A program made the position numbers and the translations under genes. Below are positions 26,907-32,323 of a stretch of 64,000 bases of DNA, piece after piece. Source of the DNA: Enterobacteria phage vB_EcoM_IME281; the sequence record MH051913. One strand, given 5' to 3'. How positions within the stretch are numbered: position 1 is the first letter of the stretch; each line of letters opens with the position of its first letter. The notes under the pieces are model-generated. The model saw only the letters and a program-made list of their open reading frames with translations. It was not told the DNA's origin and did no database searches.

Positions 26907-27464
26907 ATGACCGAAATTAAACTGACTAAAAATAACTATGTAAATAATAAGGAGCTTCTGAAAGCCATTACCCAGTGGAAAACAGAACTCCGAGAAAATA
27001 CCGACCCTAATAAAATAGTTCGTCAGAACGACGTTATCGGCTTGGCTATTATGCTCATTGCTGAAGGCCTTTCTAAGCGTTTCAACTTCTCCGGATATAC
27101 CCAATCTTGGAAGCAAGAAATGATTGCTGATGGAATCGAAGCCTCTATTAAAGGTCTTCATAACTTCGACGAAACAAAATACGACAACCCACATGCATAT
27201 ATCACTATGGCTTGTTTTAATGCCTTTGTTCAGCGTATCAAGAAAGAACGTAAAGAAATGGCAAAGAAATACAGCTACTTCGTCCATAACGTTTATGACG
27301 CCAATGACGACGACATGGTAGGTATCGCAGATGAAACTTTTATCCAGGATATTTACGACAAAATGACTCAGTATGAAACCTCTTTAGTTAAAGCGCTAGG
27401 GTCTGATAAGAGCGCCGAATCTAAAGTTGGTGAGCTGGATTTTTTATATGGAACTCAAGATTAA
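26907..27464 (+). CDS. 55: late-transcription sigma factor gp55
   Basis: 185 aa collinear with T4 gp55 (NYVNNKELL...[42 protein letters not shown]). Confidence 0.93.
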
Positions 27465-27675
27465 CCTGGTAGGCCTTTTAGAAGAAGTAGATGGAGAGTA
27501 TTCGGCAATTCCTTATGTTCTTAAAATGTATCTTAAGGATATTGCCAAGCTTCCTATTGTAATAGACCCAAAACACCCTGATTCGGTAGAAATTAAAGCT
27601 GAAAAAGGAACATTAACTTATAACTATCACGTTACCGACGAAGATTTTTATATAAAACTGAATTACAAGGATTAA
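27448..27675 (+). CDS. hypothetical protein
   Basis: ORF overlapping gene 55 end; start uncertain. Confidence 0.4.
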
Positions 27676-27676
27676 T

Positions 27677-27988
27677 ATGCAAAGCACCGACATTTCTCAA
27701 TTGACCGAAGAGCAAATTGAAGAAGCCCAGAAGCGTTTAGAAGAGAATAATGCTAAAGAAGCCGCTTCTCAAGCTGCCAAAATTCTTAAAAAGAATGCCC
27801 GTGAAATTAAGCGTCTTAATACACACGCACAGGGCGCTGTTCTCGAAAACAATTTCGAAGCTTACAAATATGCTATAATTAAATTACGTGGTATTTACCG
27901 TCAACCAACTACTGACGAAATCGTTAGAGTTATGTGGGAAACTACGCGTAAACAGATTTGGGAAATTATCAATGGCGCTAGTAAATAA
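27677..27988 (+). CDS. hypothetical protein
   Basis: 103-aa ORF. Confidence 0.55.
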   Translation: MQSTDISQLTEEQIEEAQKRLEENNAKEAASQAAKILKKNAREIKRLNTHAQGAVLENNFEAYKYAIIKLRGIYRQPTTDEIVRVMWETTRKQIWEIINGASK

Positions 27989-28172
27989 ACCCTTTAAACG
28001 GCTTCTTATTGGAGCCGCCTTCAGACTTCGCTCATACGGTAATATTTGTATTAAGCAGACTGAAACCGAATATAAAATGGTTGGGCAGTATTCCGATGAA
28101 ATTTTTCGGATTGAGCCTGTAGCCAAGGTTTGGGTTGATTCACATCAACTTAAGAAGTGGTGGCAACGATGA
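27972..28172 (+). CDS. hypothetical basic protein
   Basis: ORF from MALVNK. Confidence 0.4.
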   Translation: MALVNKPFKRLLIGAAFRLRSYGNICIKQTETEYKMVGQYSDEIFRIEPVAKVWVDSHQLKKWWQR

Positions 28173-28191
28173 TAACATGGACAGGTGGCTA

Positions 28192-28283
28192 ATGAAAGAC
28201 GAACATCCGGATTTTTAAGCTATGAATGACGAATACGAAAAAGTTTAAGAGGTTTTATGAATGACGAATTCGATGGATTTTGA
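28192..28283 (+). repeat. three tandem ~30-bp direct repeats, each an 8-codon mini-ORF (MKDEHPDF, MNDEYEKV, MNDEFDGF)
   Basis: Direct reading: atgaaagacgaacatccggatttttaa / atgaatgacgaatacgaaaaagtttaa / atgaatgacgaattcgatggattttga. Confidence 0.6.
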
Positions 28284-28434
28284 TAAGATTAAATCTGACA
28301 AAAATGAGATGATACTTAAATTTGAAGCTGCTCGTATTAAAGCGGAAAATGAAGGTACTATTACCTATAAGCCTATCAAGTTCAGGTCTTCTCATGAACC
28401 TCTGTATGGCGTATTAATTGGTAAAGGAGCTTAG
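28261..28434 (+). CDS. hypothetical small protein
   Basis: 57-codon ORF overlapping third mini-ORF in another frame; terminator follows. Confidence 0.35.
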   Translation: MTNSMDFDKIKSDKNEMILKFEAARIKAENEGTITYKPIKFRSSHEPLYGVLIGKGA

Positions 28435-28446
28435 GCTCCTTTTTTG
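28425..28446 (+). terminator. intrinsic terminator
   Basis: AGGAGC-ttag-GCTCCT then TTTTT. Confidence 0.65.
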
Positions 28447-28488
28447 CTTTATATTCGGATGATAAAATGAACCAACTGAGGAGAACAT

Positions 28489-28632
28489 ATGGAATTACTT
28501 TTAGGATATGTCGTGTTATTCATGGCATTCTACACATTCACACGAGCCTGTTGGATAGGATTCTTTTCTACTCCTGATGGGTTCATCTCAATAATTTTAT
28601 TTTGCATTGCGATAACGGTGCTCGGCTTATGA
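28489..28632 (+). CDS. hypothetical small membrane protein
   Basis: 47-codon hydrophobic ORF with GAGGAG SD, ATGA-coupled to gene 47. Confidence 0.4.
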   Translation: MELLLGYVVLFMAFYTFTRACWIGFFSTPDGFISIILFCIAITVLGL

Positions 28633-29651
28633 AAATATTAAACACTGGTGACTGGCACCTTGGAGTGAAGGCCGATGATGTGTGGGTACAAAATATCCAA
28701 CGTCAAGGTATCCAAGACGCTATCAATTATTCTAAAGCAAATGGTATTACCGTGTGGATTCAATACGGTGATATCTTTGACGTTCGTAAAGCAATTACCC
28801 ATAAGTGTATGGAATTCGCTCGCGAAATCTCTGATTTGCTTAAAGCTAATGGCATTACCATGTATACCATTGTTGGTAATCATGATATGCACTACAAAAA
28901 TACCTTGACTCCTAACGCAGCTTCTGAAGTTCTGGGTAAATATGACCATATCAAGGTTATTGAGAAACCTACTACGGTTAACTTTGATGGCACCGAAATT
29001 GATTTGATTCCATGGATGTGTGAAGAAAACACTACTGATATCATGGACCATATCAAAAATACCACAGCAGATTTCTGTATTGGACATTGGGAATTAAATG
29101 GTTTCTATTTCTATAAAGGAATGAAATCTCATGGTTTAGAACCTGATTTCCTTAAAAAGTATAAGCAAGTTTGGTCAGGTCACTTCCACACTATTTCTGA
29201 TGCAGCAAACGTCAAGTACATTGGTACTCCATGGACCCTTACTGCAGGTGATGAGAACGACCCTCGTGGTTTCTGGATTTTCGATACCGAAACTCATAAA
29301 ATGGATTTCATCATTAATGAAACCTGTTGGCATCGTAAGATTCATTATCCTAACGAGACTATCGATTACAAAGATTTTACAAATATCGCAGTTCGTGTTA
29401 TAGTCGATAAAATCGATGACGGTCTTACTAAGTTCGAATCAGAGCTTGAAAAGGTTGTTCACTCTTTACGTATTGTGTCTAAGGTAGATAATAGTGTTGA
29501 TATCGATGATTCTGAAGAGGAAGACGAAGTTAAATCCCTCTTGGATATGATGTATGATTATATCGATGCCCTTCCTGATGGCCACACTGAAGCCGATGTT
29601 AAAGCCCTTAAGACTATGGCTGCACAACTTTATAATGAGGTTACACGATGA
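28629..29651 (+). CDS. 47: recombination endonuclease subunit gp47 (Mre11/SbcD-like)
   Basis: Calcineurin-like phosphoesterase motifs GDWHLG, GNHDM, GHFH; synteny with gene 46. Confidence 0.9.
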   Translation: MKILNTGDWHLGVKADDVWVQNIQRQGIQDAINYSKANGITVWIQYGDIFDVRKAITHKCMEFAREISDLLKANGITMYTIVGNHDMHYKNTLTPNAASEVLGKYDHIKVIEKPTTVNFDGTEIDLIPWMCEENTTDIMDHIKNTTADFCIGHWELNGFYFYKGMKSHGLEPDFLKKYKQVWSGHFHTISDAANVKYIGTPWTLTAGDENDPRGFWIFDTETHKMDFIINETCWHRKIHYPNETIDYKDFTNIAVRVIVDKIDDGLTKFESELEKVVHSLRIVSKVDNSVDIDDSEEEDEVKSLLDMMYDYIDALPDGHTEADVKALKTMAAQLYNEVTR

Positions 29652-31580: not shown

Positions 31581-31597
31581 GCCTCTTATTGAGGCTT
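31579..31597. terminator. bidirectional hairpin between convergent gene 46 and HNH gene
   Basis: AAGCCTC-ttatt-GAGGCTT overlapping both stop codons. Confidence 0.5.
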
Positions 31598-32323
31598 CAT
31601 TTTACAGTTATCGAAATGCCAACGATTCATATTACCGGAATTCCCTTGTTTACCACAATGAGGGCATTCTACCTTCTTTTCTGATTTTTTGCGTCCGTTA
31701 GGATTTTTCTTACAAAAAACTTTATGAGCCGCAATAACACAGGATTTTCCTGAAAGGCCACAGAATTCACATTCCACAATTTTATGGACCATGTTTTCTA
31801 GGCCTTTCTTTATTTTTAATTTTTGCTCTTCAGATATAGAGCGGTCTACTTTATTAGGGCCTTTAGGACAGTTATCGAAATGCCATCTGTTCATATTGCC
31901 TACCAATCCAGTTTTGCCACAGTGTGGACAGGTAACTCTAGGCTTTTTTAAAGCGGAAATTGACATTTTCTTTCTGGTTTCTTCCGAGAATTCTTTATCC
32001 TTTTGGGCTTCTGAATTCTTACGACGAAGCCATCCAAATAATTTATTTTTAGACCTATCAGCTTTTGGTGAGCTAACTGTCATCATTCTTGCTGCATAGA
32101 CTAACGATGCGTTATCTGGATGGATTTTAACTAACAACTGGTGAGCCAAGTAATGTTCTTCAGGTGTTAAGTCTACCAAGTTTAAAGCGTCATCCGTCCC
32201 ACCCATGCATTGTGGTATAATGTGATGACGTTCTTTATAGGTAGTTAAATTTCTATTAACTGCTCGTTGAATAAGCTTTTCGTATATTGATTTATAATTC
32301 ATTATCAAATCCTTATTTGACAC
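31586..32323 (-). CDS. free-standing HNH homing endonuclease with C-terminal zinc-finger repeats
   Basis: HNH core HHIIPQCMGGTDDALNLVDLTPEEHYLAH; three CPHCGK..GNMNRWHFDNC-like repeats; only sizeable minus-strand gene. Confidence 0.85.
   Translation of the reverse strand: MSNKDLIMNYKSIYEKLIQRAVNRNLTTYKERHHIIPQCMGGTDDALNLVDLTPEEHYLAHQLLVKIHPDNASLVYAARMMTVSSPKADRSKNKLFGWLRRKNSEAQKDKEFSEETRKKMSISALKKPRVTCPHCGKTGLVGNMNRWHFDNCPKGPNKVDRSISEEQKLKIKKGLENMVHKIVECEFCGLSGKSCVIAAHKVFCKKNPNGRKKSEKKVECPHCGKQGNSGNMNRWHFDNCKMKPQ
31586..32323 (-). mobile_element. HNH homing endonuclease gene inserted between genes 46 and 45
   Basis: Opposite orientation to all neighbours; HNH family typical of T4 mob genes. 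Confidence 0.7.

Follow-up and report, generated by a model that had tools for sequence, protein, structure and literature searches.

What could be the use of a row of open reading frames (ORFs) of only seven or eight codons, each closed by its own stop codon and placed almost end to end in a phage genome? The question is raised by a 64,000-nucleotide (nt) stretch of Enterobacteria phage vB_EcoM_IME281 (sequence record MH051913; the window in the following is this whole stretch), where mini-ORFs fill the 88-nt gap between the genes a-gt.3 and a-gt.2 on the + strand. Three of them, of 8 codons each, had been noticed in a sequence-only reading of the window and lie exactly where they had been placed: unit A (28192-28218; ATGAAAGACGAACATCCGGATTTTTAA) encodes MKDEHPDF, unit B (28222-28248; ATGAATGACGAATACGAAAAAGTTTAA) encodes MNDEYEKV, and unit C (28257-28283; ATGAATGACGAATTCGATGGATTTTGA) encodes MNDEFDGF; they represent the DEHPDF, DEYEKV, and DEFDGF types, respectively. 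Overlooked at that time were a 7-codon ORF immediately upstream, termed mini-ORF 0 (28169-28192; ATGATAACATGGACAGGTGGCTAA), with the product MITWTGG, as well as the overlap of unit C with the start of a-gt.2. From comparison with related and unrelated phages, the units are probably translated micro-cistrons, with selection acting on the sequence of their peptides.

The mini-ORFs are closely linked to one another and to the flanking genes. Mini-ORF 0 starts in an ATGA overlap with the stop codon of a-gt.3, and its own TAA overlaps the ATG of unit A (TAATG); unit B starts 3 nt past the stop codon of unit A, and each start of the chain is found at most 12 nt from the stop before it. The Shine-Dalgarno (SD)-like sequences reported previously for the first and the third unit, AGGTGG and AGAGG, are both present. 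AGGTGG (28183-88) is a weak SD sequence for unit A, with a duplex energy of -5.9 kcal/mol with the anti-SD sequence and a spacer of only 3 nt. AGAGG is part of an AAGAGG on the + strand (28247-28252; -6.5 kcal/mol), which is shared by unit C, with a spacer of 4 nt, and a-gt.2, with one of 8 nt. No SD sequence is present before unit B (-3.3 kcal/mol). Unit C overlaps the annotated start of a-gt.2 (ATG 28261), the latter gene being read in +1 relative to it. Frame 1 is common to unit A, unit B, and a-gt.2, which are split by TAA, TAA, and TGA, and only unit C belongs to frame 0; stop-codon read-through along the shared frame was considered and rejected, as all three stops would need reading through.

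The distances from start to start of the units are 30 and 35 nt, and a repeat search gave approximately 74-92% identity over 12-35 nt. The units are too diverged for the array to be picked up by Tandem Repeats Finder. Three copies of the head motif ATGAANGAYGAR are present in the window, all of them within the array (mean of 0.33 in shuffled sequences; three occurrences were reached in 0 of 100 shuffles). Likewise, when all six frames of the window are considered, units A, B, and C are the only tiny ORFs with an ending of the type D[DE]xxx[FVL]-stop, for which the shuffle mean is 0.47. Stable RNA structure was not predicted for 28140-28300, a region that is even less structured than its shuffled versions (z=+1.0), and an Rfam scan of 27400-29000 returned no family, the only match being a chance one at a terminator.

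The sequence-only reading had taken the preserved frames and stops of the repeats as a sign of function; the relatives, where frameshifts or internal stops would have spoken against it, favor this view. The window is that of a JS98-like phage of the T4 type. The 1-kb region around the mini-ORFs is 99.5% identical to that of Escherichia phage JS98, a T4-type Dhakavirus, and 17 distinct a-gt.3/a-gt.2 junctions from Dhakavirus and Gaprivervirus were compared. They fall into length classes of 109, 132, 139-140, and 206 nt, and in all of them frame and stop are kept in each unit, despite a copy number of two to four. Mini-ORF 0 followed by units A, B, and C is found in JS98, CLB_P2, C6, and MN01, while unit B is absent from ESCO10 and VR5. 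WG01 and IME341 possess a single A/B hybrid, combining head and upstream context of unit A with the tail of unit B; in YenP8 and RZ, MNIGCFEDEHPDF replaces mini-ORF 0 and unit A; and in ECML-359 unit B is followed by a 28-codon ORF ending in QDEHPDF and then by unit C. Since the number of units varies and hybrid units exist among relatives, copy number most likely changes by recombination between repeats.

The substitutions are of the coding type. For the selection test, only a-gt.2 or a-gt.3 served to retrieve the loci, and the units were then located in them by approximate matching. When codons 3-8 of types A, B, and C are taken together, variation affects 13 of 18 third positions as against 3 of 36 first and second positions (Fisher p=3e-6, a value that overstates independence, since the anchored set consists of related sequences); all three varying first or second positions trace to a 1-nt deletion variant of T4, which is described below. 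Each of the unit B variants (TAC/TAT, AAA/AAG, AAT/AAC, and ATG/TTG) either is synonymous or preserves the start. In unit C every third position varies (6/6) and no first or second position does (0/12), and its changes, while synonymous in the mini-ORF, are non-synonymous in the frame of a-gt.2 (N to S, M to T). The AAGAGG sequence is conserved, and the 3 nt following it are free to vary (TTT, TCA, TTG, CTA, or GCG). It is from the direction of the unit C changes, the third-position pattern, and the free spacer that the mini-ORF frame is concluded to be the selected one. For mini-ORF 0, eight nucleotide variants are found in the relatives, with 4 of 6 third positions and 1 of 12 first and second positions varying; the alternative frame over this ORF, MD[RGC][WR]L, is not conserved in them. 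An antisense gene as the source of constraint was rejected, because the sole nearby minus-strand ORF (28255-28395) leaves units A and B uncovered.

The same junction is informative in more distant T4-type phages. In T2 and IME537 it encodes MKDEHPDF, a peptide identical to that of unit A; the T2 mini-ORF differs from unit A by four synonymous changes and by TGA instead of TAA. The start of this mini-ORF and the stop of a-gt.3 overlap, and the ATG of a-gt.2 (gATGaa) is embedded in the mini-ORF, in the +1 frame. At this place, MHDERPDL is found in RB69 and MHDEHPDF in RB69-like contigs, preceded by a mini-ORF for MREIDLGIF. In T4 (L012; MT984581, 471-662), a 1-nt deletion relative to T2 and IME537 (CCAGAC to CCGAC) fuses MKDEH to a-gt.2, and it is because of this in-frame joining that the annotated a-gt.2 of T4 is longer (63 amino acids). 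An internal ATG of the T4 sequence then opens a 7-codon ORF, MNIRLLK. The metagenomic contig L056 carries an independent 1-nt deletion with the same in-frame fusion; an example of the fused product from T4 and L056 is MKDEHPTSEIDYNK. The N-terminus of T4 a-gt.2 (MVATVKDEHPTSEIDYNK...) thus contains, at the same junction, KDEHP codons that are orthologous to those of unit A and the T2 mini-ORF. It differs in that no free peptide ending in DF would be made, whereas a separate 8-codon ORF with its own stop exists in the window, T2, and RB69.

Peptides of this kind are not confined to the junction. With the family defined as ORFs of up to about 40 codons ending in [DE][DE]x[PDE][DGK][FVL]-stop, to which the endings of units A, B, and C conform (DEHPDF, DEYEKV, and DEFDGF, respectively), they recur in T2, RB69, RB43, phiEco32-like, rV5-like, and epsilon15-like phages and in Proteus lambdoid phages, either as ORFs of 8-14 codons or as modules joined in frame into ORFs of 28-39 residues. 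The modules, described as acidic hexapeptides in which a run of Asp and Glu leads to an aromatic or aliphatic residue at the C-terminus, are DEHPDF, DEFDGF, DEYEKV, DERPDL, EDVDFF, and VGFGEG. A family member would be expected to have its own start codon with an SD sequence or a start touching the preceding stop, and the array in the window agrees with this by ATGA, TAATG, the 3-nt gap, and AAGAGG. Degenerate-codon scans of IMG/VR gave 38 contigs for DEHPDF-stop, with 33 matches ending ORFs of not more than 40 codons, and at least 120 contigs for DEFDGF-stop. The DEYEKV-stop scan gave mostly chance matches outside Dhakavirus and Gaprivervirus; the approximately eight hits beyond the JS98 group and one rV5-like contig lack family features, and the scan serves as a rough control of about eight chance hits per pattern. 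By their design, these scans can recover synonymous variants only, which is why the selection test was based on the smaller anchored set. The tiny ORFs stand among approximately 28 different upstream/downstream gene clusters.

Among the Kuravirus podophages (phiEco32-like), a conserved 30-codon ORF, MNEGVVILGSKSDWFYGGISGCFEDEHPDF, ending in GCFEDEHPDF, is followed by MYDEFDGF overlapping an a-gt.2 homologue; in L047, MYDEFDGF is free-standing. Kuravirus vB-EcoP-XT18 (L061, 1397-1504) has been annotated with a 35-amino acid ORF in another frame (MKELLFLAVNQ...), but in the five Kuravirus sequences compared it is the 30-amino acid frame that is conserved, not the annotated one. The stretch VVILGSKSDW of the 30-amino acid ORF resembles the PurE motif. 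In RB43, the 28-amino acid ORF231w, annotated as hypothetical, reads MNTEDVDFFDERPDLIDSGCFEDEHPDF, with the modules EDVDFF and DERPDL and the ending GCFEDEHPDF; it follows uvsY, with no a-gt.2 nearby. The 30-amino acid gp82 of Klebsiella phage Potts1, likewise annotated as hypothetical, ends in VGFGEG and is located between a-gt.3 and a-gt.2; MITWTGG of mini-ORF 0 is related to the VGFGEG ends of this protein and of an ORF of L028. ORF231w and Potts1 gp82 thus share modules with the array, and the latter also its position; they differ in that the modules are read in one frame, whereas in the window they are separate cistrons with their own starts and stops, and ORF231w furthermore adjoins uvsY rather than a-gt.2. 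In rV5-like phages, the same modules form a 39-amino acid chain, MKDEFDGFIGYGEGIRQSEDVDVFVGFGEGISSDEHPDF, with an AAGGAG SD sequence.

In two groups of temperate phages, the tiny ORFs lie in late-operon leaders. In epsilon15/phiV10-like prophages (L232, phage TL-2011b, about 1340-1460; L233, E. coli CE10), the order is the last early gene (for a putative regulator), a GTGACATGTCAC palindrome, MHDEFDGF, a terminator, and terS; the terminator begins 5 nt past the MHDEFDGF stop, and the region is unannotated. It is matched by 638 E. coli genome records, from 635 of 5426 complete genomes, and the DEFDGF-stop scan contained at least 48 exact copies of MHDEFDGF between the regulator gene and terS of such prophages. 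In Proteus lambdoid phages, MFDEFDGFDEHPDF is found just past a tR'-like terminator, downstream of a Q-like gene; this version was not found in the E. coli genomes searched. Further forms are ORFs of 10-11 codons for MKKxFDEFDGF with AAGGAGG SD sequences and subsequent terminators, among the matches listed, and, from the DEHPDF-stop scan, MI[RM][KN]FR[FY]SDEHPDF followed by a terminator. In the 163-kb contig L086 (about 1780-1870), a tandem pair of MILDEFDGF and MPCVLDEFEGFDEHPDF precedes a hairpin and the next gene; owing to this second micro-ORF pair, tandem arrays are not unique to JS98. Contig L152 has a tiny ORF directly upstream of gene 47. In the IMG/VR prophage-like contigs L121 and L132, a 123-amino acid protein, the C-terminal part of which resembles the ClpX N-terminal zinc-binding domain, is followed by an overlapping tiny ORF, MKKKRMNDEFDGF; in 11 contigs related to these two, the ATG of the tiny ORF is changed to CTG.

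The tiny ORFs often precede a gene for a small zinc-ribbon protein (C..C...GPKRS[IY][MF]C..C), as seen in L141, L155, L072, and L064 (IMG/VR contigs and UPEC06), and a recurrent setting is beside genes in which this GPKRS zinc ribbon is joined to a C-terminal domain like that of a-gt.2 (...PDYEAIHNAKVDMLRRFEEAK...YKKI). In view of this fusion, a-gt.2 may correspond to one half of a family of two-domain proteins. For the relatives of 26-30 amino acids, no significant match was obtained with PHROG or Pfam (best match phrog_12503, E=0.24); ORFs of 8-14 codons are annotated in none of the records examined, and the peptide strings are not mentioned in the searchable literature, nor was anything relevant found in the literature on a-gt.2/DUF5486 and on T4 ribosome profiling. 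The ORFs would thus apparently represent an undescribed, widespread family of phage micro-ORFs.

How the array might work can be outlined as follows. Mini-ORF 0 and units A, B, and C would each be translated separately, and ribosomes leaving a-gt.3 would pass from one mini-ORF to the next by termination-reinitiation and finally arrive at a-gt.2. The junctions of this relay would be ATGA, TAATG, the 3-nt gap, and eventually the SD sequence with a gap of 8-12 nt. As unit B has no SD sequence, it would hardly be reachable except by reinitiation. The selected product would be the acidic peptide itself rather than the act of translation, because the modules are conserved when free-standing, when they form the last cistron before a terminator, and when they are internal to chains of 28-39 residues. 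Expansion and contraction of the array would result from unequal recombination, in which the heads (GACGAA) and tails (TTTAAGAGG) provide the repeats. While translation and relay are inferred from this anatomy, the role of the peptides is a matter of speculation: our guess is that they might act in trans, mimicking the acidic tails with a terminal Phe carboxylate that proteins of DNA metabolism use as docking motifs.

Such tails are known from E. coli SSB (...DFDDDIPF) and RecA (...ETNEDF) and from gp2.5 and gp4 of phage T7. The likeness, which is partial, consists in a run of Asp and Glu and a C-terminal aromatic residue with a free carboxylate, and family ORFs are often found near genes of recombination or replication (46/47 in the window, gp47 in L152, uvsY in RB43, and RNase H in Kuravirus). 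On the other hand, the known tails belong to large proteins and the predicted peptides would be free; units A and C end in PDF and DGF, respectively, instead of I-P-F, and unit B ends in KV. That the peptides have a specific target of this kind is proposed with considerable doubt. Equally doubtful is the broadest version of the proposal, according to which many phage families would carry the smallest conserved genes yet described (7-14 codons), their free peptides would competitively mimic tails of the SSB/RecA/gp2.5 type and thereby rewire host or phage DNA replication and recombination, and JS98 would deliver three or four modules by relay upstream of its Mre11/Rad50-type nuclease genes.

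Several points weigh against translated micro-cistrons selected for their peptides, or against the mimicry attached to them. The 1-nt deletions in T4 and L056 have abolished the free peptide, so that it must be dispensable there; T4 and a few other lineages have lost either the free peptide or its ATG, and the element would hence be dispensable in the way of most small T4 genes. The matches listed include exceptions to an ATG start, namely CTG in 11 contigs and ATA in one. No ribosome profiling or peptide data for the mini-ORFs were found in the literature, and free peptides of 7-8 residues should be short-lived in the cell. The mimicry idea derives only from likeness to the C-termini of SSB, RecA, and T7 gp2.5. 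To these are added the relatedness of the anchored sequences and the restriction of the scans to synonymous variants, both mentioned above.

Of the other explanations that have to be considered, one is that the units are cis-acting regulatory upstream ORFs (uORFs), in which a nascent acidic peptide slows release at the stop codon, and the event immediately downstream comes to depend on the paused ribosome. In the window, this event would be initiation of a-gt.2, the ATG of which lies 17-22 nt before the unit C stop; elsewhere it would be the formation of a terminator hairpin beginning 2-9 nt past the stop. A leader-peptide uORF had already been suggested in the sequence-only reading, and it remains a rival here, although the context given at that time was wrong, since the units precede a-gt.2. 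The idea would account for the conservation of the stop codon along with the last six residues, for the hairpin or terminator 2-9 nt past the stop in epsilon15-like phages and in L155, L086, L197, L076, and L079, for the position between late regulator and first late gene in two temperate groups, and for the observation that in T2, RB69, JS98, Kuravirus, UPEC06, and L072 the final codons of the mini-ORF contain the start, in +1, of the next gene, whichever this is. It fits less well with units A and B and MYDEFDGF of L047, which are free-standing, without hairpin or overlapping start, and with the internal modules of the 28-39-residue versions, which are conserved far from any stop; terminators near stop codons are common in any case, and it counts against this view that we know of no arrest motif of this kind. 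Overall, it is a serious alternative, although judged rather unlikely. A ribosome loading site alone, also proposed previously, would leave the conservation at the amino acid level unexplained. In contrast, the micropeptide option of the same reading agrees best with the free-standing peptides, strong SD sequences, terminators, and occurrence in unrelated phages, except that secretion or signalling has found no support. An entirely neutral origin, in which slippage or unequal crossing-over would have duplicated the 5' end of a-gt.2 (SD sequence, ATG, and first codons) in tandem and left a functionless scar, would explain the identity of the units (approximately 74-92% over 12-35 nt), the differing copy number among close relatives together with the hybrid units, as predicted for recombination between repeats, and the fact that unit A joined to the body of a-gt.2 would read in frame as MKDEHPDFDKIK, resembling the fused N-terminus of T4. 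Such a scar is, however, expected to accumulate changes at all codon positions and to lose starts and stops; the variation observed is almost purely synonymous, each unit type is conserved individually across genera, and the same peptides occur in phages without a-gt.2 nearby, all of which makes a scar improbable.

Recoding was considered in two versions. Either a +1 frameshift at GGA-UUU-UGA, as in prfB, would make unit C the true N-terminus of a-gt.2 (MNDEFDGFDKIK...), or a hop like that of T4 gene 60 would lead from GAU-UUU-UAA of unit A to GAU-UUU-GAU in a-gt.2, with MKDEHPDF-DKIKSDK... as the product (MKDEHPDFDKIK...). The frame of a-gt.2 is +1 relative to the overlapping mini-ORF in all lineages seen; UUU-UGA lets tRNA-Phe re-pair in +1; the independent 1-nt deletions of T4 and L056 create just such an in-frame fusion; constraint on the overlap region follows the mini-ORF frame and not that of a-gt.2; and GGATTTT is common to units A and C at the would-be take-off and landing sites. 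Nevertheless, a-gt.2 always retains its own ATG and a well-spaced SD sequence (in the window ATG 28261, 8 nt from AAGAGG). The position of this ATG is lineage-specific (gATGaa in T2, ATGACG in RB69 and JS98), and since it relocates yet persists across lineages, selection for independent initiation of a-gt.2 is indicated, which in the window would give the N-terminus MTNSMDF.... The shift codon is not conserved either: UUU-UGA is found in the window and in Kuravirus, but UUC-UGA in T2, CUC-UGA in RB69, and CUC-UAA or AUC-UAA elsewhere, none of which is able to re-pair. An SD-like stimulator approximately 3 nt upstream of the shift codon is absent, the sequence before UUU being GAAUUCGAUGGA, and the a-gt.2 frame is homologous to that of T4 already upstream of the stop (MDFDKIK versus IDYNKIR). 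As for the hop, the matching GAU-UUU codons of unit A and a-gt.2 would equally result from tandem duplication, there is no take-off hairpin, and WG01 and IME341 are without the DEHPDF tail that would provide the take-off sequence; besides, units that are free-standing or followed by a terminator cannot be recoding signals. Recoding is accordingly considered very improbable. Least credible of all would be a nucleic acid element (a protein-binding repeat, an RNA structure, or a homing or recombination site) with merely incidental frames. Direct repeats within an intergenic-like gap, homing endonuclease genes beside a-gt.2 in T4 (mobB) and Kuravirus (HNH genes), and the near-identity of approximately 25 nt between the T2 and Kuravirus units would be in its favor; yet the structure prediction (z=+1.0) and the Rfam search are negative, and all synonymous codon versions exist, which a sequence-specific site would not tolerate.

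With translated micro-cistrons as the preferred explanation, the array may be set against known systems of short ORFs. The bar minigenes of phage lambda comprise 2-3 codons and act via peptidyl-tRNA drop-off and tRNA starvation, the peptide sequence being irrelevant; the array differs from that type in having 7-8 codons and a conserved amino acid sequence. Common to bar, which also resides in a phage genome, to the synthetic minigenes of 3-8 codons, and to the array is the very short ORF, translated in those cases and presumed to be translated here. At least part of the published work on minigenes extends to lengths of up to 8 codons (PMC2490762). Leader peptides such as those of the pheL attenuator and the TnaC arrest system are likewise encoded by a short ORF that precedes a gene or terminator, and the tiny ORFs of epsilon15-like and Proteus phages lie in a late-operon leader beside a terminator. 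In the window, however, neither alternative hairpins nor a terminator follow the units, the sole terminator being that after a-gt.2; family ORFs are also seen at the ends of operons and, as modules, inside longer peptides; and in place of the cluster of one regulatory amino acid typical of attenuators, only Asp, Glu, and Phe recur, spread through the motif. With the +1 sites of prfB and antizyme, unit C shares a shifty UUU followed by an in-frame UGA and a main ORF in the +1 frame, but the downstream gene has a conserved start and SD sequence of its own, the shift codon is not conserved, and a stimulatory SD sequence is lacking. Similarity to the T4 gene 60 bypass may be seen in the matched GAU-UUU codons in unit A and a-gt.2; different are the absence of a take-off stem-loop and the nascent chain, which would be just 8 residues long.

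ORFs this short are ignored by gene finders, and yet an 8-codon amino acid sequence is kept in T2, JS98, phiEco32-like, rV5-like, and temperate phages. Should the peptides be produced, the size range of conserved protein-coding genes would be extended at its lower end and a modular class of phage micropeptides would be added; if the ORFs are cis-acting instead, they would constitute a novel type of short leader peptide, sequence-specific and located at the boundaries of phage operons. In either case, the family provides a concrete test set for methods of small-ORF discovery. Annotation corrections concern the a-gt.2 start of T4 and the 35-amino acid Kuravirus ORF, which was called in the wrong frame.

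The gene names used for the window derive from the JS98 annotation, which was mapped onto the + strand, and from a program-made ORF list. The order of genes on this strand is gp55, a-gt.5, a-gt.4, a-gt.3, the 88-nt gap, a-gt.2, a terminator, a promoter-like site, 47.1, gp47, 46.2, and gp46. Gene a-gt.4 (27677-27988) was placed by JS98 mapping; a-gt.3 (27972-28172; 66 amino acids), which ends with TGA at 28170-72, was identified from the ORF list, JS98 mapping, and a PHROG match (phrog_1648). The array runs into a-gt.2 (28261-28434; 57 amino acids; ORF list, JS98 mapping, and Pfam family DUF5486), homologues of which were found in 768 phage records, while a metagenome scan with the a-gt.2 alignment gave only 13 loci. 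Directly 3' of a-gt.2, a terminator scan located an intrinsic terminator (AAAGGAGCTTAGGCTCCTTT plus a T run; 28423-28450, + strand). It is followed by a site read by eye on the same strand, TGCTTTA-11 nt-TAAAAT (28445-28468), located before 47.1/47, which by comparison with the T4 middle-promoter consensus is a middle-promoter-like site of the MotA type. This pair of terminator and MotA-like site after a-gt.2 (28423-28468 in the window) is kept in T4, T2, and RB69. Gene 47.1 (28489-28632) and gp47 (28629-29651), both on the + strand, were again mapped from JS98. The sequence-only reading had described the array as a leader before the recombination nuclease operon; since the mini-ORFs fill the a-gt.3/a-gt.2 gap, and a-gt.2, terminator, promoter-like site, and 47.1 intervene, the array is not the immediate leader of the 47/46 operon. 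Just past gene 46, on the minus strand, a 245-amino acid ORF (31586-32323) contains an HNH-like motif (HHIIPQCMGG) and a repeated zinc-finger-like sequence (CPHCGK...NMNRWHFDNC); judged by these motifs, it looks like a homing-endonuclease-type insertion.

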